A stretch of 35,184 nt of DNA from an uncultured Ignavibacteriaceae bacterium (GCA_964465905.1 CAYXMK010000001.1:16923-52106); one strand, 5' to 3'; positions 4,022 to 27,812 are shown, numbered from the stretch's first letter. Translations and numbers: made by a program. Notes: generated from the sequence alone by a model not told the origin.

Positions 4022-4219
4022 AGTCCGGAGCTTTCTTCTTTCCACCGTCGAGTGTCTGTATCTCCCCCTGCCGCAGAGTCTGGTTCGTCCTCTGTTGGTT
4101 TCTCCAATATGAGAATGGGACTCGTCATGCCAGTCCCGCGCCGTTGAAAATCGCCGATTCTTCCCGTAGCTTTTCCCCGTCGTACACTCCTGCAGGCTTT
4201 CCAAGAAGGAGGCTTTTCC

Positions 4220-4990: not shown

Positions 4991-5054
4991 GCCGGAAGCA
5001 TCCCTGACGAACGACGTGTGCTCTGTGCTCTCATTTTGACTGCTGAGGACATCC

Positions 5055-12456: not shown

Positions 12457-13133
12457 AACAGATCCTCCTTGTGGAAGATGACAAAGCTATCCAACGGGGC
12501 CTGGTCGACACCCTGAGCCGGGAGCACTTTCAGGTCATCGCGGAATCAGACGGCTCCGCGGGATACGCCCGGGCGCGCAAGGCTCATTTCGACCTGATCA
12601 TCCTCGACGTCATGCTGCCGGGGATGGATGGATTTGAAATCTGCCGGAAGCTCCGCGGCGACGGCATCCAGACACCCGTCCTGATGCTGACCGGCAAGGG
12701 GGAAGAAATCGACAAAGTGCTGGGTCTGGAGCTGGGGGCGGACGACTATGTCACCAAGCCGTTCAGCATCAAGGAACTGATGGCACGCGTCAGAGCGCTT
12801 CTGCGACGGCAGGCGGAAATCCGGACCGCCATCGCCGAGACTGATTTCGGAAACGTGCACGTTGATTTCAAGAAACAGGAGACCCTCAAGGGAAGGAAGA
12901 AGGTCCGGATGAGCGCCAAGGAGTATGAATTGCTCAAGTACTTTGTCGAACACGAAGGAGAGGTCATCACGCGCCACCAACTGTTGGATGATGTGTGGGG
13001 ATACGACGTGACACCCACAACCCGTACGGTGGACAACTATGTGCTTTCGCTCCGCAAGAAGCTGGAGGCCCGGCCCTCCAGCCCTCAGCACTTCCTCACC
13101 ATCCCTACCGCCGGCTACAAGTTCGTGCGGTAG
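12453..13133 (+). CDS. OmpR/PhoB-family response regulator
   Basis: 226 aa. The receiver domain shows LLVEDD, DLIILDVMLPGMDG and LMLTGKG. The winged-helix output domain shows LSAKEYELLKYF, RTVDNYVLSLRKKL and GYKFV. Its ATG overlaps the kinase stop (ATGA at 12453-12456). Confidence 0.95.
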   Translation: MKQILLVEDDKAIQRGLVDTLSREHFQVIAESDGSAGYARARKAHFDLIILDVMLPGMDGFEICRKLRGDGIQTPVLMLTGKGEEIDKVLGLELGADDYVTKPFSIKELMARVRALLRRQAEIRTAIAETDFGNVHVDFKKQETLKGRKKVRMSAKEYELLKYFVEHEGEVITRHQLLDDVWGYDVTPTTRTVDNYVLSLRKKLEARPSSPQHFLTIPTAGYKFVR

Positions 13134-13297: not shown

Positions 13298-14140
13298 ATG
13301 AACCTGGACGGACTTCGCGTTCTCATCGCCGGTGGTACCAGCGGTATCGGGCTGGCCACAGCCCGCATGCTGTGTTCTCGCGGTGCAGCGGTCCTTGTGG
13401 CAGGCAGATCGCTCCCCCCTGCCCCCGCCATTTCCGGTCTTCCGCACGTTGCCTGCGACCTTCGCTCCCGGCGTTCTTGGGATAGACTCCTGGCGGAAAT
13501 GGTGCAACTCCATGCTGGCTGTGATGTCCTCATACACTCCGTCGGCGTACTTGTCCCGGGGCAACTGGATCATCTTCCATCATCCGCGGTCCAGACCGTG
13601 ATCGAGACGAACTTCTCCAGCGCCGTCCATGCTCTTCAGGCCGTCGTTCCCTGCATGCGTCGGCAGGGGTATGGTATGATCATCATCCTCGGATCGCTCG
13701 GTGGAATCGTTCCGATGCCGTATGGGGCTCTCTATGCCGCCACGAAGTTTGCCCTGCGCGGGCTTGTTCTCTCCGCCGCTCCGGAATTGAAGAAGGAGGG
13801 AATCGACATCTGTCTTGTATCCCCCGGACCGGTGTACACCCGCATGCTGGTCAGGGAAGCTGAGGACGAGCGTTGCACCCTCACCTTCGTCGAGCGACCG
13901 ATGCATGCCGAACAGGTTGCACAAACCATTGCACGTCTTCTGCTGCATCCCCGACTCGAGACCGTTCTTCCGGCCCACGCCGAATTTCCAAGCCGCCTGC
14001 TTGGTGCATTCCCGACGCTGCTCCGCTTCTGTTTTCCGTTGCTGAGGTTCCTCGGCACGCGACATTTGCGCGCATTCCAATCCACCGGGCTTCAGACCGG
14101 GCCGGTACCCTGTTCACTGTCCTCGCGGAGGATGCCGTGA
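13298..14140 (+). CDS. short-chain dehydrogenase/reductase (SDR) family oxidoreductase
   Basis: 280 aa with Rossmann motif VLIAGGTSGIGLATAR and catalytic YAATKFALRGL. It has a hydrophobic/basic C-terminal tail. Confidence 0.85.
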   Translation: MNLDGLRVLIAGGTSGIGLATARMLCSRGAAVLVAGRSLPPAPAISGLPHVACDLRSRRSWDRLLAEMVQLHAGCDVLIHSVGVLVPGQLDHLPSSAVQTVIETNFSSAVHALQAVVPCMRRQGYGMIIILGSLGGIVPMPYGALYAATKFALRGLVLSAAPELKKEGIDICLVSPGPVYTRMLVREAEDERCTLTFVERPMHAEQVAQTIARLLLHPRLETVLPAHAEFPSRLLGAFPTLLRFCFPLLRFLGTRHLRAFQSTGLQTGPVPCSLSSRRMP

Positions 14141-15573
14141 AGAGACCGAAACTCCTGATCATCGTCCTTTTTCAGAATCTCGGCGATACAGACCCGTACT
14201 ACGCGAAGAACCCTGCTCCGCCGCTGCCCGGAATCCTGCTGGCAGGAATGACTCCGCCCATGGTGGACGTAGAGGTGCTCCATGAGATGGTCCGCCCCAT
14301 CAACTACGACACCGACGCGGAGTTCATCGCCATCAGCTTCATGGATTACCTTGCACCTCACGCTTTTGAGGTTGCCCGGCGTTTTCGCCAGCGCGGCAAG
14401 ATCGTGGTTGGAGGAGGAAAGTTCGCCTCAACCTTTCCCGACGAGGTTCAGCCGCACTTTGACTCGATCCTCGTGGGCGAGGCGCAGTGCGTCTGGCCTC
14501 GCATGGTAGAAGATATGGTGGCCGGCAGACTGCAGAAGCGCTACACCGCCGATCCATCCGGCACACTCGAGGGCATTCCGTCCCCTCGCTATGATCTGGT
14601 CGAGCCGGTGTTCTTCACGCCCGTTGTGACGGAAGCGACCCGGGGCTGTCCTCATGCCTGCACGTTCTGCCAGCTCAACATTGAGCGCCTCCCCTTCCGG
14701 ATGCGCCCTGTGGAGGACGTCATCCGGGATCTCCAGAACACGCAAGGGCTCCCGTGGCACAAGCGCAAGATGGCGATGATCCTCGACAACAATCTCGGCG
14801 GCAACCTCCAGTACGCCAAGCAACTTCTGCGGGAAATCGCGCGGCTGAAGTTCTGGGGAATCGGTGCGCAGTACAGCATCGAGTGTGCCCGCGATCCCGA
14901 ATTCGTCGAACTGCTGTCTGCCGCGAACTGCAGGATGGCATTCGTGGGAATGGAGTCTCTGAACGACGGGAGTCTGAAGGGAGTCAAGAAGAAGCAGAAC
15001 AACGTTGAGGAGTACCGTGAGACGTTCGACCGGCTGCACCGTCGCGGCATTCTCACCTTTACGGGATTCATGTTCGCCCTCGACGAGGATACGCCTGAGT
15101 ACTATGAAACGCTCGCCGAGAAGCTGGATGAGGTCGGGATCTGTGTCATCCTCCCCTCCATCTCCGTACCGATCTACGGCACACCGTGGTATCGCGATGT
15201 CGTGGCCGAGGGGCGGCTCCTCGACACCGATCTGTCACACTATGAGGGGGATCATCTCGTGTTCCGGCACCGGCATCTGACAGGGGAGCAGATCTATACA
15301 TACTACCGCCGCGTGACACGGGCCTTCTACACGTGGCCGAATATCCTCCGGCGCTGGGTTCGCTTCCTCGGCAAGCAGAGGATCAACGAGTCCCTCCCGC
15401 AGTTCTTCCTGAAGATCCTCCTCACAACAGCCGTGTACTTCAGGCTCTCAATCTTCCAACGGCATCATGCCCAGAAGCGGATCTTCCCCCAACTCCCATC
15501 ACGGCAAACCGGGGGTGGTTTCGAGGAACTCGGGGAGGCAGCCGCCGCAGAGGGCCCCGCTTCCGGCTCATGA
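14137..15573 (+). CDS. B12-binding-domain radical SAM enzyme (class B, DUF4070-like C-terminus)
   Basis: The frame is open from inside the SDR gene. GTG 14137 overlaps the SDR stop (GTGA) and gives VKRPKLLIIVLFQN..., a typical start for a B12-binding Rossmann domain. The radical SAM cluster motif is TRGCPHACTFC (CxxxCxxC). The domain continues with FVGMESLND and TFTGFMFALDEDT. Confidence 0.85.
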   Translation: MKRPKLLIIVLFQNLGDTDPYYAKNPAPPLPGILLAGMTPPMVDVEVLHEMVRPINYDTDAEFIAISFMDYLAPHAFEVARRFRQRGKIVVGGGKFASTFPDEVQPHFDSILVGEAQCVWPRMVEDMVAGRLQKRYTADPSGTLEGIPSPRYDLVEPVFFTPVVTEATRGCPHACTFCQLNIERLPFRMRPVEDVIRDLQNTQGLPWHKRKMAMILDNNLGGNLQYAKQLLREIARLKFWGIGAQYSIECARDPEFVELLSAANCRMAFVGMESLNDGSLKGVKKKQNNVEEYRETFDRLHRRGILTFTGFMFALDEDTPEYYETLAEKLDEVGICVILPSISVPIYGTPWYRDVVAEGRLLDTDLSHYEGDHLVFRHRHLTGEQIYTYYRRVTRAFYTWPNILRRWVRFLGKQRINESLPQFFLKILLTTAVYFRLSIFQRHHAQKRIFPQLPSRQTGGGFEELGEAAAAEGPASGS

Positions 15574-15679
15574 TCCTTGACCGATCTTTGACAGTTCTAT
15601 GACATTTCATGAGCGCCCGGCGACGACCTTTCCTGTGTCCATCGATGACCATTACACTCATCACTATCAGGAGGTTGTC

Positions 15680-16285
15680 ATGAGACGCCGCATTGTCGTC
15701 CCGGGGATCTGTTCGTTCGTCCTTGCTCCCCCCCTTGCCGCTCAGCCCGCGGCCGGAACGTGGGAGCTTTCCCTCCCCGGAACTGCCGGATCCGTCTCCA
15801 CGAAGACCGAATACAGCGGCTCGTACCGCTCTGGGTCCAACAGTCCCGAAGCGCAGTCATACCTCATGCTCTACGTTCGACCGGGCTACTACATTTTCAA
15901 CGGTCTGTCTCTTGAGCCCGAGATCCCGTGGATGGCGATCGAGGACATCGAACCCGCACTGAGCGTCACCGGCAACATCAGCTACACTCTGCACTCACCC
16001 GAAAGTCGCGTTGCCCCCTTTGTGCTTGTCGGGTATGGCATGGGGAATACGATCCCCGATGCGCAGCGAGCGGTGGTGTGCACATCGGATGAATTCGATG
16101 TCTCCGTCCTCAACGCCGGCGGAGGTTTCAAGATCTTCGTCGGGGAAGCGACAGCCCTTCGGGTTGAGTACCGCTACCAGCGCTGCTCCAAAGAGGAATC
16201 GGAGACCTTCGGACCTTACACGATGACATTCCGGCACACGAATAACCAGCACAACGTGATCTTTGGGTTTTCATTCTTCCTGTAG
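15680..16285 (+). CDS. small outer-membrane beta-barrel protein (OmpA-barrel/OmpW-like)
   Basis: ATG 15680 is preceded by AGGAGG (15668-15673). The signal peptide ends LAAQ. The sequence has an alternating amphipathic strand pattern and an aromatic C-terminus, IFGFSFFL. Confidence 0.7.
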   Translation: MRRRIVVPGICSFVLAPPLAAQPAAGTWELSLPGTAGSVSTKTEYSGSYRSGSNSPEAQSYLMLYVRPGYYIFNGLSLEPEIPWMAIEDIEPALSVTGNISYTLHSPESRVAPFVLVGYGMGNTIPDAQRAVVCTSDEFDVSVLNAGGGFKIFVGEATALRVEYRYQRCSKEESETFGPYTMTFRHTNNQHNVIFGFSFFL

Positions 16286-16297
16286 GCCGGCGCCACG

Positions 16298-17074
16298 ATG
16301 AACGCATCCATCTTCAGGGGTTCTTCTATCGTGAACTTCATCCGGTATCTTCAAAGGCCCTTTCTTGCCACCACCGGATGTGCCCTGGTCTGGCTCACGG
16401 GCTGCGCCGCAACCGGACTCATGGTCGGCACCGGCATCGACGCCTCTGTGCCCGACTCCAGCAACATCTCCGGATGGGAGCTTGCAGCGATCCCACCGGG
16501 CACCGCCGGCGTGCTCGTGCATCGTAATGGGGTAACGGAGAACGTCGAGTTCGTCTGCATCCGGCAGTGTTCGGCGGAAGCCTATGCCCGGACGTATGCG
16601 GCGTTCCTCTCCGGACTTCCGAATGATGCAACTCTCCCCCGCATCGGAGAGCGTATTCAGCTGAAGACACGCGGGGGAGTATCATCGTCCTGCCGGTTCG
16701 CCGGCTTCGACTACGAACGGATCTGGGGTCTGATCGGCGATCCTCCGGTTCAGACGTACGCCCAATCCGAAAAGATCTCCGAGATCATCCTGGAGACGGG
16801 ACGCCGGATTTCAGCGGACTCGCTGCACCGGCTCCTGACCGACGGTGCGGTTCCATTCCTGTCGGGTGTGATCGTCCGCTCTTGCGGCTTCGATGAGGGT
16901 ATATTCAAGCCAGTGGGCCCGCCCGGCGAGAACGCGCCGTGCCGCCTCATACCCCTCGACGACATCCAGCACCTGAAAGTACCAACGGAGCGCAACAATA
17001 AGTGGTGGGGAGCTCTCATCGGCTTCGCAATCGATGTTGCATGGTTTGCCCTTTCCCGTACTTCACTCTGGTAA
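16298..17074 (+). CDS. hypothetical lipoprotein with C-terminal hydrophobic anchor
   Basis: 258 aa starting 12 nt after the OMP stop. It has lipobox WLTGC and a C-terminal WWGALIGFAIDVAWFAL segment. No family recognised. Confidence 0.6.
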   Translation: MNASIFRGSSIVNFIRYLQRPFLATTGCALVWLTGCAATGLMVGTGIDASVPDSSNISGWELAAIPPGTAGVLVHRNGVTENVEFVCIRQCSAEAYARTYAAFLSGLPNDATLPRIGERIQLKTRGGVSSSCRFAGFDYERIWGLIGDPPVQTYAQSEKISEIILETGRRISADSLHRLLTDGAVPFLSGVIVRSCGFDEGIFKPVGPPGENAPCRLIPLDDIQHLKVPTERNNKWWGALIGFAIDVAWFALSRTSLW

Positions 17075-17101: not shown

Positions 17102-18994
17102 ATGAAGACCTTCGTACGTTTTGTTCTCGTATGCGCTGCAGCGGCCACCGTGTGGTTCCCTGCGGCCGGACAGCAGGACACGCTCACGATCCTGCATCTG
17201 AATGACACACATTCGAATCTCGCTCCCATCGGGCCGCGGAATGCAGACCTTTCCGGAACGGTCGGAGGCATCGCCCGCGCAGCCACCATGATCGGCTTGA
17301 CAAAGATGACAGAGCCGAATGTCCTCGCTCTGCATGCCGGCGATTTGTTCATCGGCGATGTGTTCTACAACCTGTACTTCGGCATTCCGGAGCTCCGGAT
17401 CCTGCTGAGCGCCGGACTGGACGCCATGACCGTCGGAAACCATGAATTCGACCTCACTCCCTCCACACTCCTGATGGCGCTGGACACGGCTTTCGTGCAG
17501 GGCTCGTTTCCGCTTCTCTCCGCGAACGTCAATCTGGAGGCACCAGAGGTCCAGCCCCTGAAGAATTACATCCAGCCCTACATCGTCAAGGTCGTCGGAC
17601 CCGTCACTGTGGGCATTTTTGGCCTGACGACTCCGGCGACGAACATCCTCTCGCAGCCTTCTCCGGCGTTCATCGATTCCGACTTCGTGTCCATTGCCGC
17701 GGCGATGGTCGATACCCTCGCAGGAAAGGGGTGCAAGGTTATTCTCTGTCTTTCCCATCTTGGTTCATACTATGACATGCTCGTCGCACAGAATGTCCCG
17801 GGAATCCATGCCATCATCGGCGGGCACGATCACATCGTCTTTGAGGAACCGCTCGCTGTTATCACTCCGGCGGGGGATACAACCTGGATCGTTCAGGCAA
17901 ACGCATTCTATCTGAACATGGGCAGGCTTCGGTTCACCGTCACCGACAGTACTGTTGATCTTCTCGACTACACGCTGATCGACATGGATGAAGATATTCC
18001 AGAAGAACCGGAAGTGGCAACCGTAGTATCCGGACTGAAAAGCGAAATCGAGGCGACGTACCAGATTCCATTCTTTTCTCAGCAGGTGAGCTACGCCACC
18101 GAGGATTTTTCGGAAGTTGCTGACTCTCTGTCAAGTGAGGGTTACCGGGATACAGAGATTGGCAATCTGGTCACCGACGCATTCCGGTGGGTCGCCAAGA
18201 CCGACATTGCCATCGAGGTCGGCGGCTCAACGGCGCAGGTGCTCTGCCGGGGGCCTGTTGTGCCCGATGATTTGTTCAGGGTTGTCGGGTACGGTTTCAA
18301 CACGGATAATACCTTGGGATATCGGCTGGCGACGTTCGACATGAAAGGGGAGGCACTGCTGATGGGATTGGAATTCGGGCTGTCAGGCATCGAGCTCGAC
18401 GACGAATTCTTCATTCAGGCATCCGGACTCACGTACAGCTATGCCGCCGCACGTGACGCGTATCAGCGCCTGGCGGACGTCCAGATCAATGGATCGCCGC
18501 TGGATCCGGCGCAGATGTACTCCGTCACAGCCAATGAGTTCGTCCCGTTGTTCCTCACATACATCGAAATCCCGTTCGAGAACCTGAAGATCAAATCCGA
18601 TACAACGGAATTCCAGGCCCTCCTCTGGTACGTTTCGCAGTCTGACACCTTGAGACCCCCCCAGGGGGGCCGCATCCGCAGTATCGTGGATACCGCCGTT
18701 TCCGCGGTTCGCATCGCCACGCTCGTGCCAGAGCAGTTTGAACTGCATCAGAACTTCCCGAATCCGTTCAATCCATCAACATCGCTCACCTTTGATCTCC
18801 CTGTCGCCACAACCATCCGGCTTTCTGTATCCAATATTCTCGGACAGGAGATTGCCTTACTGGCGAGCGGACTGCACCAAGCTGGTTCCTACACGGTGTC
18901 CTGGAACGCCTCGGGGCACAGCAGTGGTCTCTATCTGGTCCGGCTGGAGGGGGGAGGATCCTCTGCCGTCAAGAAGATACTCCTGATCAGGTAA
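17102..18994 (+). CDS. 5'-nucleotidase/metallophosphoesterase (UshA-like) with T9SS C-terminal sorting domain
   Basis: AAGGAGGA lies upstream and a signal peptide is present. Metallophosphatase motifs are ILHLNDTHS, GDLFIGD, GNHEFD and GGHDH. A 5'-nucleotidase C-terminal domain follows. The last ~87 aa (18731-18991), FPNPFNPSTSLTF...GLYLVRLE...KKILLIR, form a T9SS-type CTD. Confidence 0.9.
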   Translation: MKTFVRFVLVCAAAATVWFPAAGQQDTLTILHLNDTHSNLAPIGPRNADLSGTVGGIARAATMIGLTKMTEPNVLALHAGDLFIGDVFYNLYFGIPELRILLSAGLDAMTVGNHEFDLTPSTLLMALDTAFVQGSFPLLSANVNLEAPEVQPLKNYIQPYIVKVVGPVTVGIFGLTTPATNILSQPSPAFIDSDFVSIAAAMVDTLAGKGCKVILCLSHLGSYYDMLVAQNVPGIHAIIGGHDHIVFEEPLAVITPAGDTTWIVQANAFYLNMGRLRFTVTDSTVDLLDYTLIDMDEDIPEEPEVATVVSGLKSEIEATYQIPFFSQQVSYATEDFSEVADSLSSEGYRDTEIGNLVTDAFRWVAKTDIAIEVGGSTAQVLCRGPVVPDDLFRVVGYGFNTDNTLGYRLATFDMKGEALLMGLEFGLSGIELDDEFFIQASGLTYSYAAARDAYQRLADVQINGSPLDPAQMYSVTANEFVPLFLTYIEIPFENLKIKSDTTEFQALLWYVSQSDTLRPPQGGRIRSIVDTAVSAVRIATLVPEQFELHQNFPNPFNPSTSLTFDLPVATTIRLSVSNILGQEIALLASGLHQAGSYTVSWNASGHSSGLYLVRLEGGGSSAVKKILLIR

Positions 18995-19015: not shown

Positions 19016-19051
19016 GCACCCGCAGGCCGCTCCTGCGGGTGCTTCGTTGTG
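19016..19051 (+). terminator. intrinsic terminator after the 5'-nucleotidase gene
   Basis: GCACCCGCAGG (19016-19026) pairs with CCTGCGGGTGC (19032-19042) to give a perfect 11-bp stem with a 5-nt loop. A T-rich tail TTCGTTGTG follows. Confidence 0.7.
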
Positions 19052-19199
19052 CTGGCAAAGGCTCCCACCGGACTGCGCAGGGCGAGGCGGGCGGAATTTG
19101 ACGCCGTTTCGACAACTTCATGACACTTCACAGCCGGGGGAAGCACAACTTGCATGTGAAGTCACAATGAGAACAACACACCAACACGAGGAGGATGTC

Positions 19200-19763
19200 A
19201 TGAAGACGCTCGTTGCTTTCTCCGTTGTCGTGCTGCTCACAATCGTGCTCCCGCTGCCGGCAGCCCTCAGCCAGCCGCTGCCCGGTGGCCAGGTCTCATT
19301 TGCCGAGCGCAACCTCGGCGGACCGCGGCTGGGGGCCACGTATGTCGTGGGGGAGAATACCCTCACACGCGAGCTCCGGGAGAATAATCTCGGAACGCTC
19401 ATCAGCCAGTTCGGATGGCATTTCGAATACCAGGTGGTGCCGGATGGGGGCGGACCGTCGTTCGTCATCGAGGCGGTTCCCATGGTTGGCGGCGTCGAGT
19501 ACGGGAAGCTCATTCCCAGTGCCACGCTCGCCATGGGTGTGCGTTTTCCAAGCGGCTGGGAATTCGGCATGGGTCCCAATGCCATTGTCACCAGGTCGGC
19601 GTCCCGCCTCGGGGCCAAGACAGCCCTCGTCCTTGCCTTCGGCAAGAGTCTGAACTACGGCGGTGTCAGTATTCCGCTGAATCTCGTTCTGGCCACGAAT
19701 CCGGATGGGAACCGCGTTTCGTTCATCTTCGGCTATGCGATCTACTCTCCGCCGAAGAAGTAG
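19200..19763 (+). CDS. secreted/outer-membrane hypothetical protein
   Basis: ATG 19200 is preceded by GAGGAGGA. The signal peptide is MKTLVAFSVVVLLTIVLPLPAALSQ. The body is Gly/aromatic-rich and beta-strand-like. The gene lies 18 nt upstream of the next gene. Confidence 0.6.
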   Translation: MKTLVAFSVVVLLTIVLPLPAALSQPLPGGQVSFAERNLGGPRLGATYVVGENTLTRELRENNLGTLISQFGWHFEYQVVPDGGGPSFVIEAVPMVGGVEYGKLIPSATLAMGVRFPSGWEFGMGPNAIVTRSASRLGAKTALVLAFGKSLNYGGVSIPLNLVLATNPDGNRVSFIFGYAIYSPPKK

Positions 19764-19781: not shown

Positions 19782-20720
19782 ATGTCCGTGCTTGCTGTTA
19801 CCGGTTCCAGCGGCTACCTGGGTCAGGCGCTCGTCCACCGCCTGGCCTGCGAACGGAAATTCCGAAAGATTGTCGGGGTTGATGTGCGGCCTCCAGCCCC
19901 CCATCAACCCTCGGTTTTCTTCCAGATGGACGTCCGGAGTGACCGGCTCTCTGAGGTATTGGGGAATGAAGGCGTCACGCACGTCGCCCATCTGGCCTAT
20001 GTCGTGAATCCGACGAGAAATCCGAATGTAGAATACGACATTGATATCGGCGGCACGCGCAACGTCTTGAACGCATGTCGGCAGACGGGCGTACGGTGCC
20101 TGACGGTGGCAAGCAGTATTGCGGCCTATGGATGGCATGCGGATAATCCGCTGCCGATTCCGGAATCGACCCCGCTGAGGGGCAATCTGGAGTTTCCGTA
20201 TGCCAGGAACAAGGTAGTGGTTGAACGGGACGTCGCGGAGTATTCGGAGAAGAATCGCCATTGCCGGGTCTGTGTGCTGAGAATCTGCAACGTTCTTGGA
20301 CCACACGTGCACAATGCGATTTCGTTTGCCCTGACGTCGCCTCTCTTCCTCGCGGCCCGCGGATATGATCCCTTTCTCGCCTTCACGCATGAAGACGACA
20401 TGGCGGAGGTGTTCCGCAGGGTCCTCGTGGAAGAAACGGCGGGAGTGTTCAACGTCGCCGGCGCAGGGATGCTGCGACTCAGCGAGGTTCTTCGCATCAC
20501 CGGACAACGTGTGCTCCACCTTCCGCATGCCGTTCTCAGGGGAACACTGGAGATTCTCTTCCGGGTCCACTGGCTGCCGTTCGGCAGTGGACAGATCGGG
20601 TTCATCGAGCACTCGTGCGTCCCGGACATCTCGAAGCTGACATCAGAGCTACGCTACGTTCCCCGGTACACCTCGGAACAGACTCTGGGTGCGTTCATCC
20701 GCTCGCGGTCTACGTCATGA
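19782..20720 (+). CDS. NAD-dependent epimerase/dehydratase (extended SDR) family protein
   Basis: 312 aa with N-terminal VLAVTGSSGYLGQALVHRL (GxxGxxG), then VASSIAAYG and a YARNK-type catalytic YxxxK. Confidence 0.8.
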   Translation: MSVLAVTGSSGYLGQALVHRLACERKFRKIVGVDVRPPAPHQPSVFFQMDVRSDRLSEVLGNEGVTHVAHLAYVVNPTRNPNVEYDIDIGGTRNVLNACRQTGVRCLTVASSIAAYGWHADNPLPIPESTPLRGNLEFPYARNKVVVERDVAEYSEKNRHCRVCVLRICNVLGPHVHNAISFALTSPLFLAARGYDPFLAFTHEDDMAEVFRRVLVEETAGVFNVAGAGMLRLSEVLRITGQRVLHLPHAVLRGTLEILFRVHWLPFGSGQIGFIEHSCVPDISKLTSELRYVPRYTSEQTLGAFIRSRSTS

Positions 20721-21652
20721 ACTCCATGATCCCATACTTCATCGTCAATCCCGCGGCAGGAGGTGGGGCATGCTCCCGACGATGGCAACTCTTCGAGCGA
20801 GACCTCGCCCGGCGGGGGGTTATGTATGACACGGTGTTCACCAGCAGTTGCGGATCAGCTACAGAACTTGCACGCGAGGCGTGTGAAAGCGGCTATGACC
20901 GCATCATCGCCTTCGGGGGAGACGGAACGCTGCATGAAGTCCTGAACGGACTGCTGGCGGCGCGGGGGAATGGAGCGGACAGAACGCTGGGTCACGTCCC
21001 CTGCGGCACCAGCAATGACTACCACAAAGAGTTCTGGGGCCTGGAGGGCTCCTTCGTGGAGCGGCTCCAGCGGAATGAAACGAGAGTCGTCGACGCTTGC
21101 AGGCTACGCTGCCGGGGATTTGACGGAACTCTCCGCGACCGGTTCTTCCTGGCGAATTCCAGCATCGGCGTCGTGGCACAGTCGCTCTGCTACTTCAATG
21201 CTCCAGGCGCATTCAACAGAGCCCTCAAGCGAATCCATCCCGACCTTGCCGTGCTCAACGTCGGACTTCAGTCGATTCTCCACAGCGGTCCTCTGGACTG
21301 CGCAATCCTCGTCGATGATCGCCAGCTATCGGCCCGCTCTCCGGCGAATCTTTCCATCATCAAAGCCCGGTACTTCGGAGGCGGCATGTCGTACAACATC
21401 CCGGCAGCCATTGATGACGGATTTCTCCATCTCATCGGAATTGACGGACTCAGCCGATGGGGAATGGCCGCCATGATTCCCCATTTCTATCGCGGTGACG
21501 TTCTCCGCATGCCCGGCGTGTGGCATGTCATCGGCACAAGGATCAGCATCGGCGGCGATCCCGGGCAACCTGTGGAGGCCGACGGGGAAATCGTCGGATC
21601 CCTGCCGGCTGAGTACACCATCCTGCCTCGGGCCGTGCGGATACTCCTGTGA
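20717..21652 (+). CDS. diacylglycerol-kinase-family lipid kinase (YegS/BmrU-like)
   Basis: ATG 20717 overlaps the upstream stop (ATGA). The N-terminus is YFIVNPAAGGG and the DAGK catalytic signature is IIAFGGDGTLHEVLNGL. The C-terminal part contains PVEADGEIVG. Confidence 0.8.
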   Translation: MNSMIPYFIVNPAAGGGACSRRWQLFERDLARRGVMYDTVFTSSCGSATELAREACESGYDRIIAFGGDGTLHEVLNGLLAARGNGADRTLGHVPCGTSNDYHKEFWGLEGSFVERLQRNETRVVDACRLRCRGFDGTLRDRFFLANSSIGVVAQSLCYFNAPGAFNRALKRIHPDLAVLNVGLQSILHSGPLDCAILVDDRQLSARSPANLSIIKARYFGGGMSYNIPAAIDDGFLHLIGIDGLSRWGMAAMIPHFYRGDVLRMPGVWHVIGTRISIGGDPGQPVEADGEIVGSLPAEYTILPRAVRILL

Positions 21653-21664
21653 GAACCTGACGCC

Positions 21665-22723
21665 ATGTCCACGAGCCAACACTCGGTGCTGTCGGAAGAA
21701 CGCGAGATCATTGAGCTCCTCACCGCCGGCTTCGAGCGTCACCCGCAGCAGCTGAACGACCTTTTCACTTCCGACGCCGAAGTTCTCGACATCGGCGAAT
21801 CCCGCTGTCTCGTGAGCACCACGGACACGTTGAGCGAAGAGATTCGTCTCGGCATCTTGCGCGATCCCTGGAAGATTGGCTGGACAGCGGTCAACGTAAA
21901 TTTGAGCGATCTTGCAGCAGTCGGAGCAGACGCGCTTGGCCTGCTGCTCTCCTGGGGCGTGCCGCCGCACGCTTCGCGGGAACTGCTGGCTGCCGTGGCT
22001 CGTGGTGTTCTGGATGCTCTCCGGTACCACCACTCTTATCTCCTCGGAGGGGATCTGAACGAAGCAGAGTCGCTGCAGCTCTGCGGCACAGCTCTCGGTC
22101 TTATAGAGAAAGGACGGCGGCTGCAGCGCGCCGGCATGTGCCCCGGCGATGCGCTCTTCCTCTCCGGACCCATCGGCAGCGGCAACGCTCTCGGCTGCGC
22201 CAGGATCCTGAACCACGGCGACGCGGACCGGATCGAGTCGGAGTACCTTCCCACCGCACGTCTGCGCGTCGGCCGAATGATCGCACCGTTCGCATCTTCC
22301 TGCATCGACACCAGCGACGGCGTGCTGGCGGGTCTCGACCTGCTGGCGCATCTGAACAGGTGCGGTGTTGTCTTCCGGAGTGTTCCCGATCTCTATGACG
22401 GCAATGCCCGACGGCTCTCGGAACAACTCCGGATTCCCCTCTGGCTCTTCGCAGCCGCGGAACATGGGGAATTCGAACTCCTTTTTTCTGTACCGGAGGC
22501 CCGTGTCACCGAGCTGAGGAGACATTGTGAGCTCTACTCTCTGAAGATCCTGGAACTGGGACACGCAATCGCCGAGACGGAAATTGTCCTGGAGGACGTG
22601 AACGGCTCGCACCACACGCTCGATGCTGCCGAACTTCATTCCATTTCATCCTGCGGACGCTCCAATCCCTCCCTCTACGTTGAGCGACTGATAGAGTATG
22701 CCCGGTCGCTCAGGAGATCATGA
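21665..22723 (+). CDS. ThiL-like / AIR-synthase-related (PurM superfamily) ATP-dependent enzyme
   Basis: 352 aa, colinear with E. coli ThiL motifs. AVNVNLSDLAAVGA matches AVNLSDLAAMGA, and LLGGDL matches the ThiL GGD motif. IDTSDGVLAGL matches IDLSDGLISDL, and EHGEFELLFSVPE matches GGEDYELCFTVPE. Confidence 0.75.
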   Translation: MSTSQHSVLSEEREIIELLTAGFERHPQQLNDLFTSDAEVLDIGESRCLVSTTDTLSEEIRLGILRDPWKIGWTAVNVNLSDLAAVGADALGLLLSWGVPPHASRELLAAVARGVLDALRYHHSYLLGGDLNEAESLQLCGTALGLIEKGRRLQRAGMCPGDALFLSGPIGSGNALGCARILNHGDADRIESEYLPTARLRVGRMIAPFASSCIDTSDGVLAGLDLLAHLNRCGVVFRSVPDLYDGNARRLSEQLRIPLWLFAAAEHGEFELLFSVPEARVTELRRHCELYSLKILELGHAIAETEIVLEDVNGSHHTLDAAELHSISSCGRSNPSLYVERLIEYARSLRRS

Positions 22724-22724
22724 C

Positions 22725-23723
22725 ATGACAGACCGCAACGACAGCGCGGTGCCGGCTCTCCGGCGTTTGGCACGCAATATCTGGGTGACGTTCCGTCCCC
22801 ATTTCTTCCCGATCTCGGGGGCTGCGGGGTTCACCGGCATTGCGCTTGCCTATGCCTCACCCCCTCTGTGGATTACGATCACAATCGGCATGATTTGCTT
22901 CTTCTCGTACGGTCTCATCCAGGCATTGTGCGATACGTTCGATCTCGAGACGGATCGCATCAACGCACCGTTCCGGCCCCTCGTCAGCGGCGCGCTCTCC
23001 GTCCGGACGCTCTGGATTGTTCTCGGCTCCCTCCTGACAGGTGTCGCAATCCTGTTCGTCCTGATCAACCCTCTTCTGCTGATTCTTCAGTTCATCGCAC
23101 TCATCTTCAGCTTCTCATACAACAGGATGAAGCGCATTCCTCATGCCGGACCCCTCTGGAATGGCGTCATCGTCGCGACGCTCCCGCTTATCGGAGCAAC
23201 AGCGGTTTCAGGCACACGGTCATTGCTGGAACTCCCTCTGCCGGTTTACCTGTGCGCAGTCCTGTTCTGCATTGTGTACGCCGGATTCGTGCTGACGGGG
23301 TACTTCAAAGATGTCACCGGCGACCGCGCAACGGGGTACCGGACATCCCCTGTTGTGTATGGACCCCGAAAGACCCGATGGGAAGTGCCGGCCTATGTGA
23401 TCGTGGGAACATTGGGGATGGCGTCACTGCCGATGGTTTCCCCCGACAGTTGGCATACCGCGCCCGCTGGTGGCAGAGAGGTCTTCAGTCTGCTGGGAGT
23501 GCTGGCTGTCGGACTTCTTCTCACCGGCAATGTTCTGCTCATTCGGGATTTCTCCGAAAAAGGTGCATATCCGTCCCTTCTGTGGTACACCCGGGGAATG
23601 CTGCTATATCTCCTCGCTCCCGCTGCTCTTGCATCACCAGCCACTGCCATCGGCGTAACTCTGGTTCTTGTTGGAATCCTTGAGTACTTTCTCCGGCACA
23701 CACGTGGCACAGGACAGGCATGA
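22725..23723 (+). CDS. UbiA-family prenyltransferase (integral membrane)
   Basis: ATG 22725 lies 1 nt after the upstream stop. There are about 8-9 TM helices. The first Asp-rich motif is CDTFDLETDRINAPFRPLVSG (NDxxDxxxD...RP..SG type). The second motif region is YFKDVTGDRATGYRT. Confidence 0.85.
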   Translation: MTDRNDSAVPALRRLARNIWVTFRPHFFPISGAAGFTGIALAYASPPLWITITIGMICFFSYGLIQALCDTFDLETDRINAPFRPLVSGALSVRTLWIVLGSLLTGVAILFVLINPLLLILQFIALIFSFSYNRMKRIPHAGPLWNGVIVATLPLIGATAVSGTRSLLELPLPVYLCAVLFCIVYAGFVLTGYFKDVTGDRATGYRTSPVVYGPRKTRWEVPAYVIVGTLGMASLPMVSPDSWHTAPAGGREVFSLLGVLAVGLLLTGNVLLIRDFSEKGAYPSLLWYTRGMLLYLLAPAALASPATAIGVTLVLVGILEYFLRHTRGTGQA

Positions 23724-25891
23724 CGACCCTTTCAGCCCGGCGCGGTCTCCTTCTCCTGCTCATCGCGCTCGGTGGGCTCGCTTCGTCTCTCCCCGCTCAA
23801 AACCTCCGTGTCGCTACCCTCAACTTCTGGTCGGCGGTTGACTACTGCGGGACCCTGAGTGTCGGATCCTTCGAGTCGCCGGAACAGCATGCCCTCCGGC
23901 TCCGTGCACTTACCCGGTTGCTCCAGGATCTCCAGCCTGACGTCGTTGCCTTGCAGGAATCCAACGATGTCTTCCGCGTCGCCGCTGAACTTGAAGAAAC
24001 GCTTGGTTACGACGCCCTCGTCCAGCGCGTGAATGCCGGCATCAAGATCGGACCTTGCGGCATTCCCTGCAATCTGAATGAAGGGTTGATCCTCCTGGCG
24101 CGGAAGGAGCTGGAGCTGCAACCCGTGGCTGTTTGGGATCTCTCCCGAAGATTCGGCGCCGTCGGCAACACAGTCTCGTTCCACTTCGACGATCAGAACT
24201 ATGCCCTCGTTGGCAGAGTGCGGCTGGATACAATAGACGTTTACATCGTCAACGTTCATCTCTCATCCGGCGTGCCGGCAGCCGCGGAAACCCACGAACA
24301 GCTGGACAGTATCCTTGCTGTCCATGGAATTTCCCTTGAGAAGGCAAGGAGCCTGCATGCCGATCTCAATGCCGGCTCGCTGCTGCGACATGAAGAAGCA
24401 ACGCGCCTCCTCGCGCACATCGAAAGGGAGCTCACCGATGGCGCGGTCGTTCTGATGGGCGACTTCAACGCTGCACCCGATGCCCCGGAGATTCAGGCCG
24501 TGGGCACTGCAGGTTTCACTGACGCTTTCACGTGTGCCGGGACCGGCGCCGGCAACACGTGGGATCCCTCCCGGAATGTTCTCATCCGTTATTCGACAGA
24601 TGCGGTGACCGCTGACGGCGCACCGCTGGACCCGTTCGGTCTCCTCGCAGCATGGTACGACCGTCAGCCAAGGAGAATCGATTATGTCTTCCTGGGCCCT
24701 CACGGCACGCCAGGGGACGTCTTGTCTGCGTCACTGATCGGCGATTTCTCTACAGACAGCACCCCTGTTTCCGACCACTTCGGAATCACAGCAGAGATCG
24801 ACCTCTCGAGGATTTCCCGCAGGTTGAATGCTCTCGACCGATACACTCTGCACCCTCCACAGCGGAGCCTGGAACTCCTGCCGATTCTGATGTACGATAC
24901 CGATGTCGGATTCGGGTACGGCGGGAAGCTGTTCCTCCTCAACTACCTTGATTGGTCCGAGTCGTTTGATTTCACCATATTCAACAGTACGAAAGGAGAG
25001 CGATGGTACCGGCTTGTCTTCTCCCTCCCCGACTTTGAGGTCCGCCAGGGAAGAATTTACCCCTTTGCGTTCGACTTCATTATCGACTACGATCGGTATC
25101 TCAAGAACAACTTCTTTGGCATTGGGGGAAATTCCCACTCCGAAGACCGGGAGACCTACACGAAGGAACCGTTGGATGTGTTTGCGCTGGTGAGCAGGGC
25201 TTTTTCTCCACGCTTTGTCGGACAGATCGGCGTGAAGTACCGAACTGTGAACAATTTCGGCTACAGGTCGGGAGGTCTCTTTACGTCGCTTCCCCCGCAG
25301 AACCTCGGCCGGAGCAGCGGTCTCTCACTGCTGGCCTCTGTGCGGTACGATTCCCGCGACAGCTATGTCAACCCTTCGCGGGGATTCGTTCTGCAGCTGG
25401 ATCTCGAGGCCGGACCCCGCATGACGCTCTCCAGCGGCAACCAATCCCGACCGGTGACAGACTACAGTCTCTTTGGCGGACTCATTTCCTGCCAGAGCTA
25501 CCACACCCTGTTCTATCCAAAGACGGTGTTCGCTGCACGTGTTCAGGCGCGAATGGTCAACGGCTCCCGCCTGCCGGTGCACAGTTATGTTTCCCTCGGA
25601 GGAGGAGGCACCCTGCGTGGCTATCCTCAGGATCGCTTTATCGACAAGGCCGGCGTCCTGGCGAATGTTGAACTGCGGTTTCCGTTGTTCTGGCGCATCG
25701 GAGGGGTAGCCCTGTGGGATATCGGGAAGCTCACGGGATCGGCTTCGGCACCCGGTTCACTTGCTTCCGGTTGGAAATCAAACGTTGGCGGCGGTCTGCG
25801 TCTCTCCATGGACACCTTCGTCGTTCGAGCCGATATCGGGTTCAGCCGGGAATCGACCGGTTTCTACTTCAACTTCGGCCACGCGTTCTGA
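23720..25891 (+). CDS. fusion protein: endonuclease/exonuclease/phosphatase (EEP) domain plus Omp85-family (surface antigen D15) beta-barrel
   Basis: ATG 23720 overlaps the UbiA stop (ATGA), and a signal peptide ends LPAQ. EEP motifs appear in order: ATLNFW, VALQES, LMGDFNAAPD, RIDYVFL, VSDHFGITAEI. From about aa 390 the sequence is Omp85 barrel-like (YDTDVGFGYGGKLFLLN... GGGGTLRGYPQDRF ... GGGLRLS ... FYFNFGHAF). Confidence 0.8.
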   Translation: MTTLSARRGLLLLLIALGGLASSLPAQNLRVATLNFWSAVDYCGTLSVGSFESPEQHALRLRALTRLLQDLQPDVVALQESNDVFRVAAELEETLGYDALVQRVNAGIKIGPCGIPCNLNEGLILLARKELELQPVAVWDLSRRFGAVGNTVSFHFDDQNYALVGRVRLDTIDVYIVNVHLSSGVPAAAETHEQLDSILAVHGISLEKARSLHADLNAGSLLRHEEATRLLAHIERELTDGAVVLMGDFNAAPDAPEIQAVGTAGFTDAFTCAGTGAGNTWDPSRNVLIRYSTDAVTADGAPLDPFGLLAAWYDRQPRRIDYVFLGPHGTPGDVLSASLIGDFSTDSTPVSDHFGITAEIDLSRISRRLNALDRYTLHPPQRSLELLPILMYDTDVGFGYGGKLFLLNYLDWSESFDFTIFNSTKGERWYRLVFSLPDFEVRQGRIYPFAFDFIIDYDRYLKNNFFGIGGNSHSEDRETYTKEPLDVFALVSRAFSPRFVGQIGVKYRTVNNFGYRSGGLFTSLPPQNLGRSSGLSLLASVRYDSRDSYVNPSRGFVLQLDLEAGPRMTLSSGNQSRPVTDYSLFGGLISCQSYHTLFYPKTVFAARVQARMVNGSRLPVHSYVSLGGGGTLRGYPQDRFIDKAGVLANVELRFPLFWRIGGVALWDIGKLTGSASAPGSLASGWKSNVGGGLRLSMDTFVVRADIGFSRESTGFYFNFGHAF

Positions 25892-25986: not shown

Positions 25987-27390
25987 TTGGGCACGCTTCG
26001 TCGCGTTTTCCTTCCCCTGTCCTCAGCCGCCGTCACGCTTTTCCTCCACCCCGACCTCTCTGCTCAGGTCTCCCTGCGCGAGAAGATCGGACAGATGGTG
26101 ATGGTAACCGTCACGGGGGATTCTCTGGAGAAATCTTCCCCGTCGCTGGACACGTTGAAGAGCGATCTGGACCAGGGCCTGGTCGGCGGACTGATCCTCT
26201 TCAACTGGAGCGGGAATCTGAAGAATCCGGATCAGATCGCCCACTTCACGCAGGAATTGCAGAAGAGGGCCCGGACTCCGCTCTTCCTCGCCATTGATCA
26301 GGAGGGAGGGAGAGTCGCCCGCCTGAACGCGTCGAACGGCTTTCAGGCAACCGCCTCTGCGTACACGCTCGGGACGATCCTCAATCTTGAAAGCGCCACC
26401 CGACAGACGGCAGGCACGATGGCCCAGTGGCTCTGGCAGATGGGATTGAACATGAACCTTGCCCCCGTTGTGGATGTCAATGTGAATCCGGCCAGCCCGG
26501 CCATCGGCGCTGTGGAACGCAGCTTCTCTACCGACGCCGACACCGTCGCGCTGCACGCCTCCTGGTTCATCGATGAATTCCATAAGCGGGGTATCATCAC
26601 CACGCTGAAGCACTTTCCCGGTCACGGCAGTGCAACCGGCGATTCGCATCTCGGCTTCACCGATGTAACTACAACATGGACATCCATCGAGCTGGTGCCG
26701 TACCGCCGTTTGATGGCAGCTCATCTCGTCGAAGCCGTCATGACTGCCCACGTCTTCAACGCAACCATTGATACTTTGTACCCCGCCACACTCTCGACGG
26801 CAACGATCACCGGCATTCTCAGAAACGAGCTTGGCTACCAGGGCGTGGTGGTGAGCGACGAAATGGGAATGAAAGCAATTTCCTCGCAGTTCGGATTTGA
26901 CGAAGCTATCGGATTGGCACTCAATGCCGGAGTGGATCTCCTGCTGTACAACAAAAACCTGGACAGTACCGGCTCATCGTTGGCCCGGCATGTGGTTGAC
27001 TACGTCGAGCAGAAGGTCCTTGAGGGTGAGATCGCCCCCCTACGCATCGAGGAATCCTATGACCGGATTATGGCCCTCAAGAGCCGGTACCTCGTATCCG
27101 CACCGGTCCGCATCACGGCGGCGATGCCTGCATCATGGGGACTCTCGAACTATCCCAATCCCTTCAACAGCTCCACACAGCTCGTTGTCAGCGTGAGGGC
27201 TCGCGGTTCGGCTGAACTGCAGATCTTCGATCTCCTCGGCCGGGCGATCGCAACGCTTCTGCATCAGGACCTTGAGGCGGGGGAACACCGCGTGGTCTGG
27301 GATGCCCGTGACATGCCCAGCGGCGTCTACCTGGCCCGACTGACGGTTGCTCAGCACGTGCTGACCGCCAGAATTCTTCTCCTTCGGTAA
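25987..27390 (+). CDS. glycoside hydrolase family 3 beta-N-acetylhexosaminidase (NagZ-like) with T9SS C-terminal sorting domain
   Basis: There is no ATG after the upstream stop. TTG 25987 (or TTG 25957) yields a signal peptide ...AAVTLFLHPDLSAQ. GH3 motifs are KIGQMVMV, FLAIDQEGGRVARL, NLAPVVDVN, KHFPGHGSATGDSH and VVVSDEMGM. The last ~84 aa (27136-27387), NYPNPFNSSTQLVV...GVYLARL...RILLLR, form a T9SS-type CTD. The start codon is uncertain. Confidence 0.85.
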   Translation: MGTLRRVFLPLSSAAVTLFLHPDLSAQVSLREKIGQMVMVTVTGDSLEKSSPSLDTLKSDLDQGLVGGLILFNWSGNLKNPDQIAHFTQELQKRARTPLFLAIDQEGGRVARLNASNGFQATASAYTLGTILNLESATRQTAGTMAQWLWQMGLNMNLAPVVDVNVNPASPAIGAVERSFSTDADTVALHASWFIDEFHKRGIITTLKHFPGHGSATGDSHLGFTDVTTTWTSIELVPYRRLMAAHLVEAVMTAHVFNATIDTLYPATLSTATITGILRNELGYQGVVVSDEMGMKAISSQFGFDEAIGLALNAGVDLLLYNKNLDSTGSSLARHVVDYVEQKVLEGEIAPLRIEESYDRIMALKSRYLVSAPVRITAAMPASWGLSNYPNPFNSSTQLVVSVRARGSAELQIFDLLGRAIATLLHQDLEAGEHRVVWDARDMPSGVYLARLTVAQHVLTARILLLR

Positions 27391-27727: not shown

Positions 27728-27769
27728 ACGGTGGGAATGCTGATCGGAGCGTTCCCACTGTTTGTTTTG
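27728..27769 (+). terminator. attenuator hairpin B:C with U-rich tail (terminator-like 1)
   Basis: A 13-bp stem (27728-27740 with 27749-27761, including 2 G-U pairs) has an 8-nt loop and runs into TTTGTTTTG (27761-27769). Confidence 0.5.
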
Positions 27770-27777
27770 CACACGCG

Positions 27778-27812
27778 AAATCGTGGGATCCTCCGCCCAC
27801 GATTTTTCTTTG
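27778..27812 (+). terminator. attenuator hairpin D:E with U-run (terminator-like 2)
   Basis: AAATCGTGGG (27778-27787) pairs with CCCACGATTT (27796-27805) to give a 10-bp stem with an 8-nt loop. It runs into TTTTTCTTTG (27803-27812), 44 nt before the trpB2 ATG. Confidence 0.6.

Follow-up and report, generated by a model that had tools for sequence, protein, structure and literature searches.

A 35,184-nucleotide stretch of DNA from an uncultured Ignavibacteriaceae bacterium (GCA_964465905.1 CAYXMK010000001.1:16923-52106, one strand; hereafter the window) carries a gene, here called EEP-Omp85, that fuses a catalytically complete enzyme domain of the endonuclease/exonuclease/phosphatase (EEP) superfamily to an Omp85 beta-barrel without POTRA domains (Table 1). 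This single-gene fusion is genuine: its reading frame is intact and independently confirmed, and the two-domain layout recurs in more than 130 full-length homologues, far beyond what chance would give. As a tentative explanation of its role, we put forward a regulated, outer-membrane-anchored phosphodiesterase that would face the periplasm across the mouth of its own barrel and act on the phosphodiester headgroups of envelope lipids. The initial annotation, a reading made from the DNA sequence alone, had left open whether the combination of EEP and Omp85 was already characterised; we found no description of it in the searchable literature, including by full-text searches pairing Omp85 with EEP-type terms.

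Table 1. Features of the EEP-Omp85 gene and its surroundings in the window
Feature	Position	Strand	Basis
Whole EEP-Omp85 gene, 723 codons and stop	23720..25891	+	open reading frame list, identical independent protein, >130 full-length homologues
Sec-type signal peptide, residues 1-26 (MTTLSARRGLLLLLIALGGLASSLPA, followed by QN)	23720..23797	+	translation; helix 2-21 in model
EEP catalytic domain, residues 28-361	23801..24802	+	Pfam PF03372, family conservation, Foldseek, profile matches
Inter-domain connector, residues 362-382: 9-residue helix and 12-residue linker	24803..24865	+	model secondary structure, family spacing
16-stranded Omp85 beta-barrel, residues 383-723, highly conserved charged lumen	24866..25888	+	Pfam, model, Foldseek
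Fusion-specific block LFYPKT, residues 596-602: end of strand 10, turn T5, start of strand 11	25505..25525	+	entropy test
Loop-6 LRGY motif, pairing with strand-13 WxDxG (Omp85 'lid-lock')	25613..25624	+	invariant columns
C-terminal beta-signal GFYFNFGHAF, invariant final Phe	25859..25888	+	G714, Y716, N718, F719, G720, F723 conserved
7TM sensor histidine kinase, 861 aa	9871-12456	+	Pfam HisKA_7TM/HisKA/HATPase_c
OmpR/PhoB-type response regulator	12453-13133	+	Pfam Response_reg/Trans_reg_C
Small OMP_b-brl outer-membrane protein	15599..16285	+	Pfam PF13505
Secreted 5'-nucleotidase/metallophosphoesterase with type IX secretion system sorting tail	17102..18994	+	Pfam Metallophos, 5_nucleotid_C, Por_Secre_tail
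Cassette A: NAD epimerase	19782-20720	+	Pfam, NCBIfam
Cassette A: DAGK_cat/YegS	20615-21652	+	Pfam, NCBIfam
Cassette A: ThiL-like AIRS	21665-22723	+	Pfam, NCBIfam
Cassette A: UbiA	22698-23723	+	Pfam, NCBIfam
GH3 glycosidase with type IX secretion system tail	25987..27390	+	Pfam; TTG at 25987, then signal peptide

A single reading frame encodes both domains

From its ATG start the gene reads through 723 codons, uninterrupted by a stop or a shift of frame. An identical 723-residue protein is encoded in an independent Logan assembly of run SRR12686701 (L001), and the same sequence is recorded at NCBI (P0001), so that an assembly frameshift is excluded; the single frame, the identical assembly and the conserved full-length homologues together rule out an artefact in which two genes were read as one.

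The initial annotation had proposed one frame holding a signal peptide, a complete set of EEP motifs and an Omp85/D15-type barrel, and each of these proposals was borne out. All the motifs that it quoted occur in the translation, namely ATLNFW (residues 32-37), VALQES (76-81), LMGDFNAAPD (245-254), RIDYVFL (319-325) and SDHFG (351-355), and the C-terminal end reads FYFNFGHAF. The Sec-type signal peptide was read from the translation, with its cleavage site placed by eye, and the same direct reading found no lipobox cysteine in it. Pfam recognised both domains above their gathering scores, with Exo_endo_phos (PF03372) at residues 58-353 (E 2.9e-10, 40.7 bits against a cutoff of 24.5) and Omp85 (PF01103) at residues 472-723 (E 2.6e-16, 60.5 bits against 24), and the domain boundaries first given, about 23798-24810 and about 24880-25888, were correct to within a few codons.

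We built an AlphaFold2 model on an alignment of 51 homologues (mean predicted local distance difference test score 89.5, predicted template modelling score 0.82), in which the EEP alpha/beta domain (residues 28-361) is followed by a helix (362-370), a 12-residue linker and 16 barrel strands (383-719). The description 'POTRA-less' holds: a Pfam scan of the 723-residue protein returned no POTRA model even at E<=1, the model leaves a 21-residue gap before strand 1, and catalytic H353 and P388 of strand 1 are spaced by exactly 34 residues in 41 of the 51 sequences and never by more, so that no member of the family has room for a POTRA domain of about 75 residues. A cryptic POTRA between the domains is thereby ruled out. 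The length of the connector is kept across the family and its sequence is poorly conserved; the fixed length suggests a defined arrangement of the one domain relative to the other.

The barrel itself carries the marks of the Omp85 superfamily. A long loop 6 (617-643) lies between strands 11 and 12 and contributes to the 'lid-lock', defined as a loop-6 (V/L/M)RG(F/Y/W) motif with a strand-13 (F/W)xDxG motif (PMC11358297). Among the 51 fusions, R633 and G634 of LRGY and D667 of WDIG are invariant and G669 is at least 90% conserved; the beta-signal at the C terminus is likewise retained (Table 1). Foldseek aligned the barrel with that of TamA (4n74; TM 0.76, E 8.5e-14) and also matched BamA. For the membrane side of the EEP domain, its alignments to the POTRA-bearing BamA and TamA structures (447-660 columns, root-mean-square deviation 8-22 Å) were judged uninformative. 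The NCBIfam model NF047779, 'Omp85 family outer membrane protein', scored 118 bits, below its cutoff of 200. Since the genome of a relative (L002) encodes a separate, canonical, POTRA-bearing BamA elsewhere, EEP-Omp85 is not the housekeeping insertase.

The enzyme belongs to a distinct EEP subfamily

The catalytic and metal-binding set comprises N35, E80, H180, D248, N250, D321, D352 and H353; among the 51 fusions H180 is at least 90% conserved and the other seven residues are invariant, and 74 stand-alone relatives, which stop 9-13 residues past the DH motif, keep most of the set at 90% or more. All 36 members of the EEP-domain alignment match PF03372. By these residues, the domain is a catalytically intact, metal-dependent EEP phosphoesterase. 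Two inserts mark it, a hydrophilic helical one of 67 residues (181-247) whose length is conserved and a conserved GIKIGxxGIPxNxxEG at residues 106-122, and both are common to stand-alone secreted relatives of about 350 residues from several phyla.

Placing the domain in a characterised subfamily failed. A profile search, with the fusion and stand-alone EEP domains as query, gave a flat series of distant matches to 3teb (E 1e-12), TDP2 (1e-11), S. aureus beta-haemolysin (3e-11) and nocturnin (2e-10), with weak matches to Listeria and Bacillus sphingomyelinases (Bacillus, 1e-3) and to Man-6-phosphatase (4c1r, 1.8e-5). Foldseek matches were dominated by TDP2 entries (TM 0.77-0.82) and judged non-discriminating, NCBIfam gave marginal matches to ExeM/NucH and Xth alone (E >0.04), and a sequence search of the PDB returned zero EEP matches. 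The flat series of matches and the conserved inserts of its own point to a distinct EEP subfamily for the domain, with no specific affiliation to the sphingomyelinases evident. The earlier label 'sphingomyelinase-like' holds at superfamily level only, the profile being equidistant from TDP2, beta-haemolysin, nocturnin and an uncharacterised EEP.

Some members of the subfamily have domain partners that are unusual for an EEP: two proteins of about 372 residues (P0396 and P0401) carry a C-terminal PP-binding (acyl carrier) domain, and one of 732 residues (P0254) has an N-terminal DegT/DnrJ/EryC1 sugar aminotransferase.

Distribution and barrel-only relatives

A word-indexed search returned at least 198 clusters, of which the best 120 all combine PF03372 with PF01103, measure 636-781 residues and are 39-53% identical. 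In an exhaustive HMMER scan of 1.84 billion representatives, 152 matches were obtained at E<=1e-30; the matches form three classes, full-length fusions, barrel-only proteins (about 360 residues) and stand-alone EEP proteins (about 350 residues). Relatives are encoded at 209 GTDB species-representative loci, and the best 80 of these were used for the counts of forms and neighbours; the window's own genome is not among the species representatives. The 80 loci all come from metagenome-assembled genomes, assigned to Ignavibacteria/Ignavibacteriota, 'Bacteroidota/Bacteroidetes', Kryptoniota, Aminicenantes, Gemmatimonadota, Cloacimonadota and one Chlorobiaceae; 72 have EEP sequence and 8 are barrel-only, which places the fusion in at least 72 uncultured species over several phyla. 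Public annotations name these proteins 'BamA/TamA family outer membrane protein' or 'endonuclease/exonuclease/phosphatase family protein'.

When the barrel alone was used as query, the closest proteins among the 120 matches listed were barrel-only Omp85 proteins of 360-390 residues with 55-60% identity. Where the fusion has its 335-residue enzyme, such relatives have just 16-50 residues, signal peptide included. Fusion and barrel-only barrels have median identities to the window's barrel of 52% and 49% respectively, and in a neighbour-joining tree of 271 barrels the two forms are interleaved, in 117 maximal pure clades, a pattern that is indicative since the tree carries no support values. Nearly all conserved barrel positions are common to both forms, among them about 25 charged strand residues. 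At one barrel-only locus (L083) the order of kinase, regulator and barrel is that found with the fusions, and no EEP-coding sequence lies within 10 kb of the barrel gene at any of the eight barrel-only loci, so a separate EEP gene beside these orthologues was discarded as an explanation. Because the barrel-only orthologues interleave with the fusions and occupy the same gene context, the barrel appears to be the constant part of the family and the EEP domain an accessory. The EEP part is frameshifted at three loci (L058, L065, L081) and has an in-frame deletion at two others (L064, L078), with the barrel intact; genuine decay of the enzyme domain or faulty assembly of long-read metagenome-assembled genomes would each account for this.

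The two parts also occur as neighbours. At L091 a signal-peptide-bearing EEP of the same subfamily is followed, after 90 nt, by a gene for a POTRA-less Omp85 barrel, distant from the window's (32% identity over 205 residues); as independent gene-fusion evidence, this split pair indicates that enzyme and barrel work together. The pair (L091, 1-9430) stands beside NamZ (an exo-MurNAc-ase), a GH3/beta-lactamase fusion, an SSF symporter and an MFS transporter, surroundings that look like a peptidoglycan or amino-sugar salvage cluster.

The enzyme probably stays in the periplasm

As the two forms interleave, constraints present in fusion barrels only should mark the site at which the enzyme docks. 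We compared per-column entropy between 136 fusion barrels and 135 barrel-only barrels, using 200 permutations of the labels. The difference at the block LFYPKT reached up to 3.46 bits, against a permutation maximum of 0.93, with weaker fusion-specific signals at turns T4 and T6. Mean fusion-specific constraint was 0.33 bits at periplasm-proximal positions and 0.10 at extracellular-proximal ones (Mann-Whitney p=0.008), and in the same comparison the extracellular loops L2, L4 and L7 showed none at all. Turn T5 is assigned to the periplasmic side because loop 6, between strands 11 and 12, fixes the strand parity, and its place on the rim of the barrel is about opposite that of strand 1. This pattern of conservation makes it likely that the EEP domain remains periplasmic, tethered at strand 1 and docked across the barrel mouth onto T5 (FYPKT).

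The initial annotation had instead envisaged a surface-displayed enzyme, by analogy with export or anchoring of a lipase by PlpD. A fusion-specific constraint on the periplasmic turn at residues 596-602, with none on the extracellular loops, favours a periplasmic enzyme, and the PlpD model on which the analogy was built has itself been overturned, its patatin domain having been shown to be periplasmic (PMC11116518).

A two-component system is the recurrent neighbour

We surveyed the neighbours of the gene at the 80 loci by targeted BLAST and by unbiased all-versus-all clustering, and the two rankings agree: a response regulator (36-38 loci), a histidine kinase (33), the 5'-nucleotidase (17), a diacylglycerol kinase-type gene (DAGK; 9-11), the small outer-membrane protein (10) and AIRS/UbiA (6-7). 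The usual order on one strand is kinase, regulator, in some cases the small outer-membrane protein (between regulator and fusion gene at 10 of the 80 loci), then the fusion, often directly adjoining. The 5'-nucleotidase, third commonest among the neighbours, lies directly upstream at L005, L006 and L009. One of the largest apparent neighbour clusters, present at 42 loci, proved to be an antisense reading frame inside the fusion gene itself (window 23732-24259, minus strand) and was discarded as an artefact, such frames owing their 'conservation' only to the conserved sense strand and a high G+C content.

Counts by lineage were restricted to loci whose upstream sequence extends for at least 5 kb, 35 of them labelled Ignavibacteria, 'Bacteroidota' or Kryptoniota (Ignavibacteria-type) and 12 from other phyla. 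Kinase and regulator lie upstream on the same strand at 23 of the 35 Ignavibacteria-type loci and at none of the 12 from Aminicenantes, Gemmatimonadota, Cloacimonadota or Chlorobi. Gene neighbourhood thus points to a dedicated two-component system as the conserved partner in one large lineage, with lipid genes as a variable addition. The initial annotation had placed the gene at the end of a lipid-flavoured operon. That description suits the window, where the fusion start overlaps the UbiA stop, and does not carry over to the family, in which lipid genes accompany the fusion at 12 of 35 Ignavibacteria-type and 0 of 12 other loci; a family-wide lipid operon is rejected as a general rule, the association being specific to lineage and locus.

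In the window, a co-directional run leads to the fusion gene through the seven-transmembrane (7TM) kinase, the regulator, a short-chain dehydrogenase/reductase (SDR) gene, a B12-binding radical-SAM gene, the small outer-membrane protein, two genes of unknown function, the 5'-nucleotidase and a set of four genes that we call cassette A. The type IX secretion system tails encoded by neighbouring genes assign the window's organism to the FCB group. NCBIfam names the kinase core PnpS/PhoR and the regulator PhoB as best matches, all below cutoff and with other OmpR-family models close behind. The kinase also aligns end to end (residues 192-851), below cutoff, with the model of the PEP-CTERM kinase PrsK (TIGR02916); a PrsK-like 7TM kinase is here paired with an OmpR-type, not an NtrC-type, regulator.

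The four bases ATGA at 23720-23723 hold both the UbiA stop and the fusion start, an arrangement that predicts translational coupling of the two genes. Cassette A recurs beside the fusion at five loci (L026, L043, L048, L057, L075), and its AIRS protein scores 154 bits against a ThiL cutoff of 184. Because a lipid kinase, a monophosphate kinase and a prenyltransferase stand together, the cassette looks like a prenol-to-prenyl-diphosphate salvage route that would feed a prenylated lipid. A second set, cassette B, occurs at 4-8 loci and comprises a fusion of PEMT with BtaA-like DUF3419, an unknown protein of about 390 residues ('unk390'), an Orn/Arg-decarboxylase-like protein, a class II aldolase, an FtsX-like permease and an ABC ATPase; judged by its gene content, it may make and export a betaine- or amino-lipid. 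At L007 (474-7861), L015, L016, L032 and L064 it also includes DAGK_cat and a 5'-nucleotidase, and it is found in part at L002/L018 and L005/L006.

The fusion gene ends this co-directional run. Its first description as the last gene of an operon is doubtful. The GH3 gene, whose start at TTG 25987 is probable, follows 95 nt downstream on the same strand; no terminator is predicted between the two, and strong terminators lie at 27728-27806, so the GH3 gene is possibly co-transcribed with the fusion. GH3 adjoins the homologues at none of the 80 loci. Its presence near the fusion in the window and near the split pair at L091 is either coincidence or a hint at a cell-wall-related substrate.

Other features of the window were noted in passing. 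The SDR and radical-SAM genes (13298-15573) recur with cassette A at the same five loci. The radical-SAM frame as listed (TTG 13873) overlaps the SDR gene by 268 nt (13873-14140), and its true start probably lies near the SDR stop, since its B12/radical-SAM matches begin near residue 137. Two proteins without family match, of 258 residues (16298-17074) and 238 residues (19047-19763), have homologues that recur beside the fusion or the 5'-nucleotidase: the 238-residue type at L014, L017, L035, L037, L043 and L083, and the 258-residue type as a match to a 266-residue protein at L005 and L084. Further upstream, a minus-strand frame of 727 residues (2921-5104) without Pfam match overlaps plus-strand frames of 225-401 residues (2816-4990), and a BLAST homologue of unk390 of cassette B lies on the plus strand about 21 kb upstream of the fusion, roughly in the 2816-4990 region.

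Proposed function and alternatives

In the explanation that we tentatively favour, the EEP domain would be tethered at strand 1, cap the periplasmic mouth of the barrel and touch T5, and from there it may cleave the phosphodiester headgroups of lipids in the outer membrane's inner leaflet, as a phospholipase C or sphingomyelinase would. This substrate class, which we propose with some doubt, is drawn from analogy and from the DAGK, BtaA-like and UbiA gene context. The barrel would anchor the protein in the membrane and be the place of local bilayer perturbation, as proposed for PlpD, and the chemistry would differ from that of PlpD (C-type as against A-type cleavage). In Ignavibacteria-type genomes the gene would be an output of the dedicated 7TM-kinase/OmpR-type system, and its clustering with the 5'-nucleotidase and the lipid cassettes (DAGK/ThiL-like/UbiA; DUF3419 with FtsX-ABC) would fit an envelope-lipid remodelling or phosphate-salvage regulon.

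Several points weigh against this explanation. We infer the membrane side from conservation, canonical Omp85 strand parity and the PlpD precedent, and connectivity alone permits export, the order of passenger, linker and barrel being also that of classical autotransporters. The EEP profile matches the DNA-repair enzyme TDP2 no less closely than the sphingomyelinases, and inspection of the hydrophilic 67-residue insert revealed no obvious membrane-inserting element. Barrel-only orthologues in the same context imply that the role of the barrel needs no EEP domain. The lipid genes reach only the counts given above, 12 of 35 and 0 of 12 loci, and the two-component association may partly reflect inherited synteny in one lineage.

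An unlikely but related possibility gives the barrel the larger part: POTRA-less barrels with an invariant charged lumen would form the core of a kinase-controlled lipid-handling device, and the EEP domain, added across the periplasmic mouth in many lineages, would cleave headgroups extracted at the lateral seam on the spot. If true, this would be the second independent case, after PlpD, of Omp85 barrels in lipid enzymology and the first functional handle on the orphan noNterm Omp85 family.

Nutrient scavenging is about as unlikely. Here the EEP domain would be a periplasmic or surface nuclease or organophosphate phosphodiesterase acting with the 5'-nucleotidase under PhoR/PhoB-like control, the charged barrel may be a channel through which phosphorylated solutes enter, and barrel-only forms would be that channel alone. 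The 5'-nucleotidase at 17 of the 80 loci, the PhoB and PnpS/PhoR best matches, the TDP2 DNA phosphodiesterases as closest structures and the many invariant charged lumen residues in fusion and barrel-only forms all suit such a role. However, the PhoB, PhoR and PnpS scores are below their cutoffs and nearly equalled by other OmpR-family models, the 7TM, PrsK-like sensor of the kinase is unlike PhoR, no pst or pho genes lie nearby in the window, and the Pfam scan of the protein found no DNA-binding accessory domain. The EEP relatives fused to PP-binding or DegT domains point to small-molecule or glycolipid chemistry, and Omp85 barrels are normally closed by loop 6.

Surface display is improbable. 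It would require that the barrel, or BamA at assembly, export the EEP domain with the connector threading the pore, to yield an anchored phosphodiesterase or phospholipase C. The enzyme, short helix and barrel do follow one another as in type Va autotransporters, among which globular esterase passengers exist; the length of the connector is conserved, and the 5'-nucleotidase and GH3 neighbours are secreted with type IX secretion system tails, suggesting extracellular nutrient processing. Beside the fusion-specific conservation of a periplasmic turn and not of extracellular loops, the fully conserved lid-lock of the lumen-filling loop 6, a helix of just 9 residues in a connector of unconserved sequence and the withdrawal of the PlpD export precedent (PMC11116518) speak against it. 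The type IX secretion system serves surface enzymes in these organisms, yet EEP-Omp85 has no such tail.

Equally improbable is that a noNterm-Omp85 role of the barrel, such as envelope protein or lipid handling, is primary and the EEP domain an exchangeable part acting on envelope phosphodiesters other than phospholipids, with phosphoethanolamine, phosphocholine or sugar phosphates on lipopolysaccharide, on glycans or on the product of the prenyl-lipid cassette as candidate substrates. The interleaving of fusion and barrel-only forms (117 pure clades in 271 sequences; medians 52% and 49%), their shared kinase-regulator context at L083 and the deletion of the EEP part at L064 and L078 are what it would predict, although the tree is without support values and faulty assembly may explain some truncations. 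EEP enzymes are reported to take phosphocholine or phosphoethanolamine off GlcNAc, an EEP Man-6-phosphatase (4c1r) exists too, and cell-wall sugar enzymes of GH3 or NamZ type adjoin the gene at L091 and in the window; the EEP domain, however, shows no specific similarity to sugar-phosphodiesterase families (4c1r, E 1.8e-5). Since what noNterm barrels do is itself poorly understood (PMC11358297), the proposal has less specificity than its rivals.

Relation to known systems

EEP-Omp85 is an enzyme-Omp85 fusion and not a new kind of system; it belongs in full to both the Omp85 and the EEP superfamilies. A survey of Omp85/TpsB proteins (Heinz and Lithgow, 2014; PMC4104836) recognised ten subfamilies, including patatin (PlpD), 'Metallo' (PF00149), WD40 and noNterm, and none with an EEP domain. 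Like EEP-Omp85, PlpD and FplA ('type Vd') carry a hydrolytic enzyme N-terminal to a 16-stranded Omp85 barrel; in PlpD, however, this is a patatin (Ser-Asp lipase) followed by one POTRA domain, whereas EEP-Omp85 has a metal-dependent EEP domain and no POTRA. The Pfam scan of the 723-residue protein gave no patatin (PF01734) match, and no PlpD-type barrel appeared among the listed close relatives of the window's barrel. Having neither patatin nor POTRA, EEP-Omp85 falls outside the PlpD/type Vd family. PlpD dimerises (Hanson et al., 2024; PMC11116518), and its loss raises phospholipid levels, from which a role in outer-membrane lipid homeostasis was proposed (PMC11116518).

The absence of POTRA is an exception that EEP-Omp85 shares with both the noNterm and the Metallo subfamilies. 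Metallo proteins, uncharacterised and from Bacteroidetes/Chlorobi, likewise place a phosphoesterase-fold enzyme on a POTRA-less barrel (PMC4104836), said to resemble noNterm barrels (PMC4104836). Their enzyme fold is unrelated, calcineurin-like PF00149 as against PF03372 here, and PF00149 is absent from the 723-residue protein and from the 120 listed closest relatives of its barrel, so that EEP-Omp85 is no Metallo protein. noNterm proteins (for example Leptospira LIC12252/12254/12258) are POTRA-less with lid-lock motifs, as is the window's barrel, and differ in lacking any N-terminal domain where EEP-Omp85 has 335 residues of EEP. Barrel comparison makes the window's barrel an orthologue of noNterm-type barrels.

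On the enzyme side, the bacterial neutral sphingomyelinases (S. aureus beta-haemolysin, B. cereus and Listeria SMase C) and TDP2 have the same fold and the same Asn/Glu/His/Asp-Asn/Asp/Asp-His constellation; the EEP-Omp85 enzyme is no nearer to them than to nocturnin or 3teb and is set apart by its inserts. PlcP-type phospholipase C is a cytoplasmic-membrane-associated metallophosphoesterase, neither an EEP enzyme nor an outer-membrane protein. It offers a functional analogy only, in that phospholipid headgroups are removed to supply the making of lipids free of phosphorus; at L002/L018, L007, L015, L032 and L064 the fusion has BtaA-like DUF3419 genes nearby. Lipid remodelling through PlcP upon phosphorus deficiency has been described (PMC4796936).

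Significance

The EEP-Omp85 family adds an unrelated fold to those recruited to Omp85 barrels, which would make enzyme recruitment a repeated event, with patatin, PF00149 and EEP domains, the last being the third independent case. Omp85 proteins are textbook protein insertases and translocases, and PlpD recently showed that the same scaffold can carry a periplasmic lipid enzyme. The occurrence of fusion and barrel-only forms in the same gene context amounts to a natural experiment on the function of noNterm Omp85 barrels. For the poorly studied lineages of the FCB group and Acidobacteriota, EEP-Omp85 is a candidate outer-membrane phosphodiesterase that may take part in envelope remodelling.

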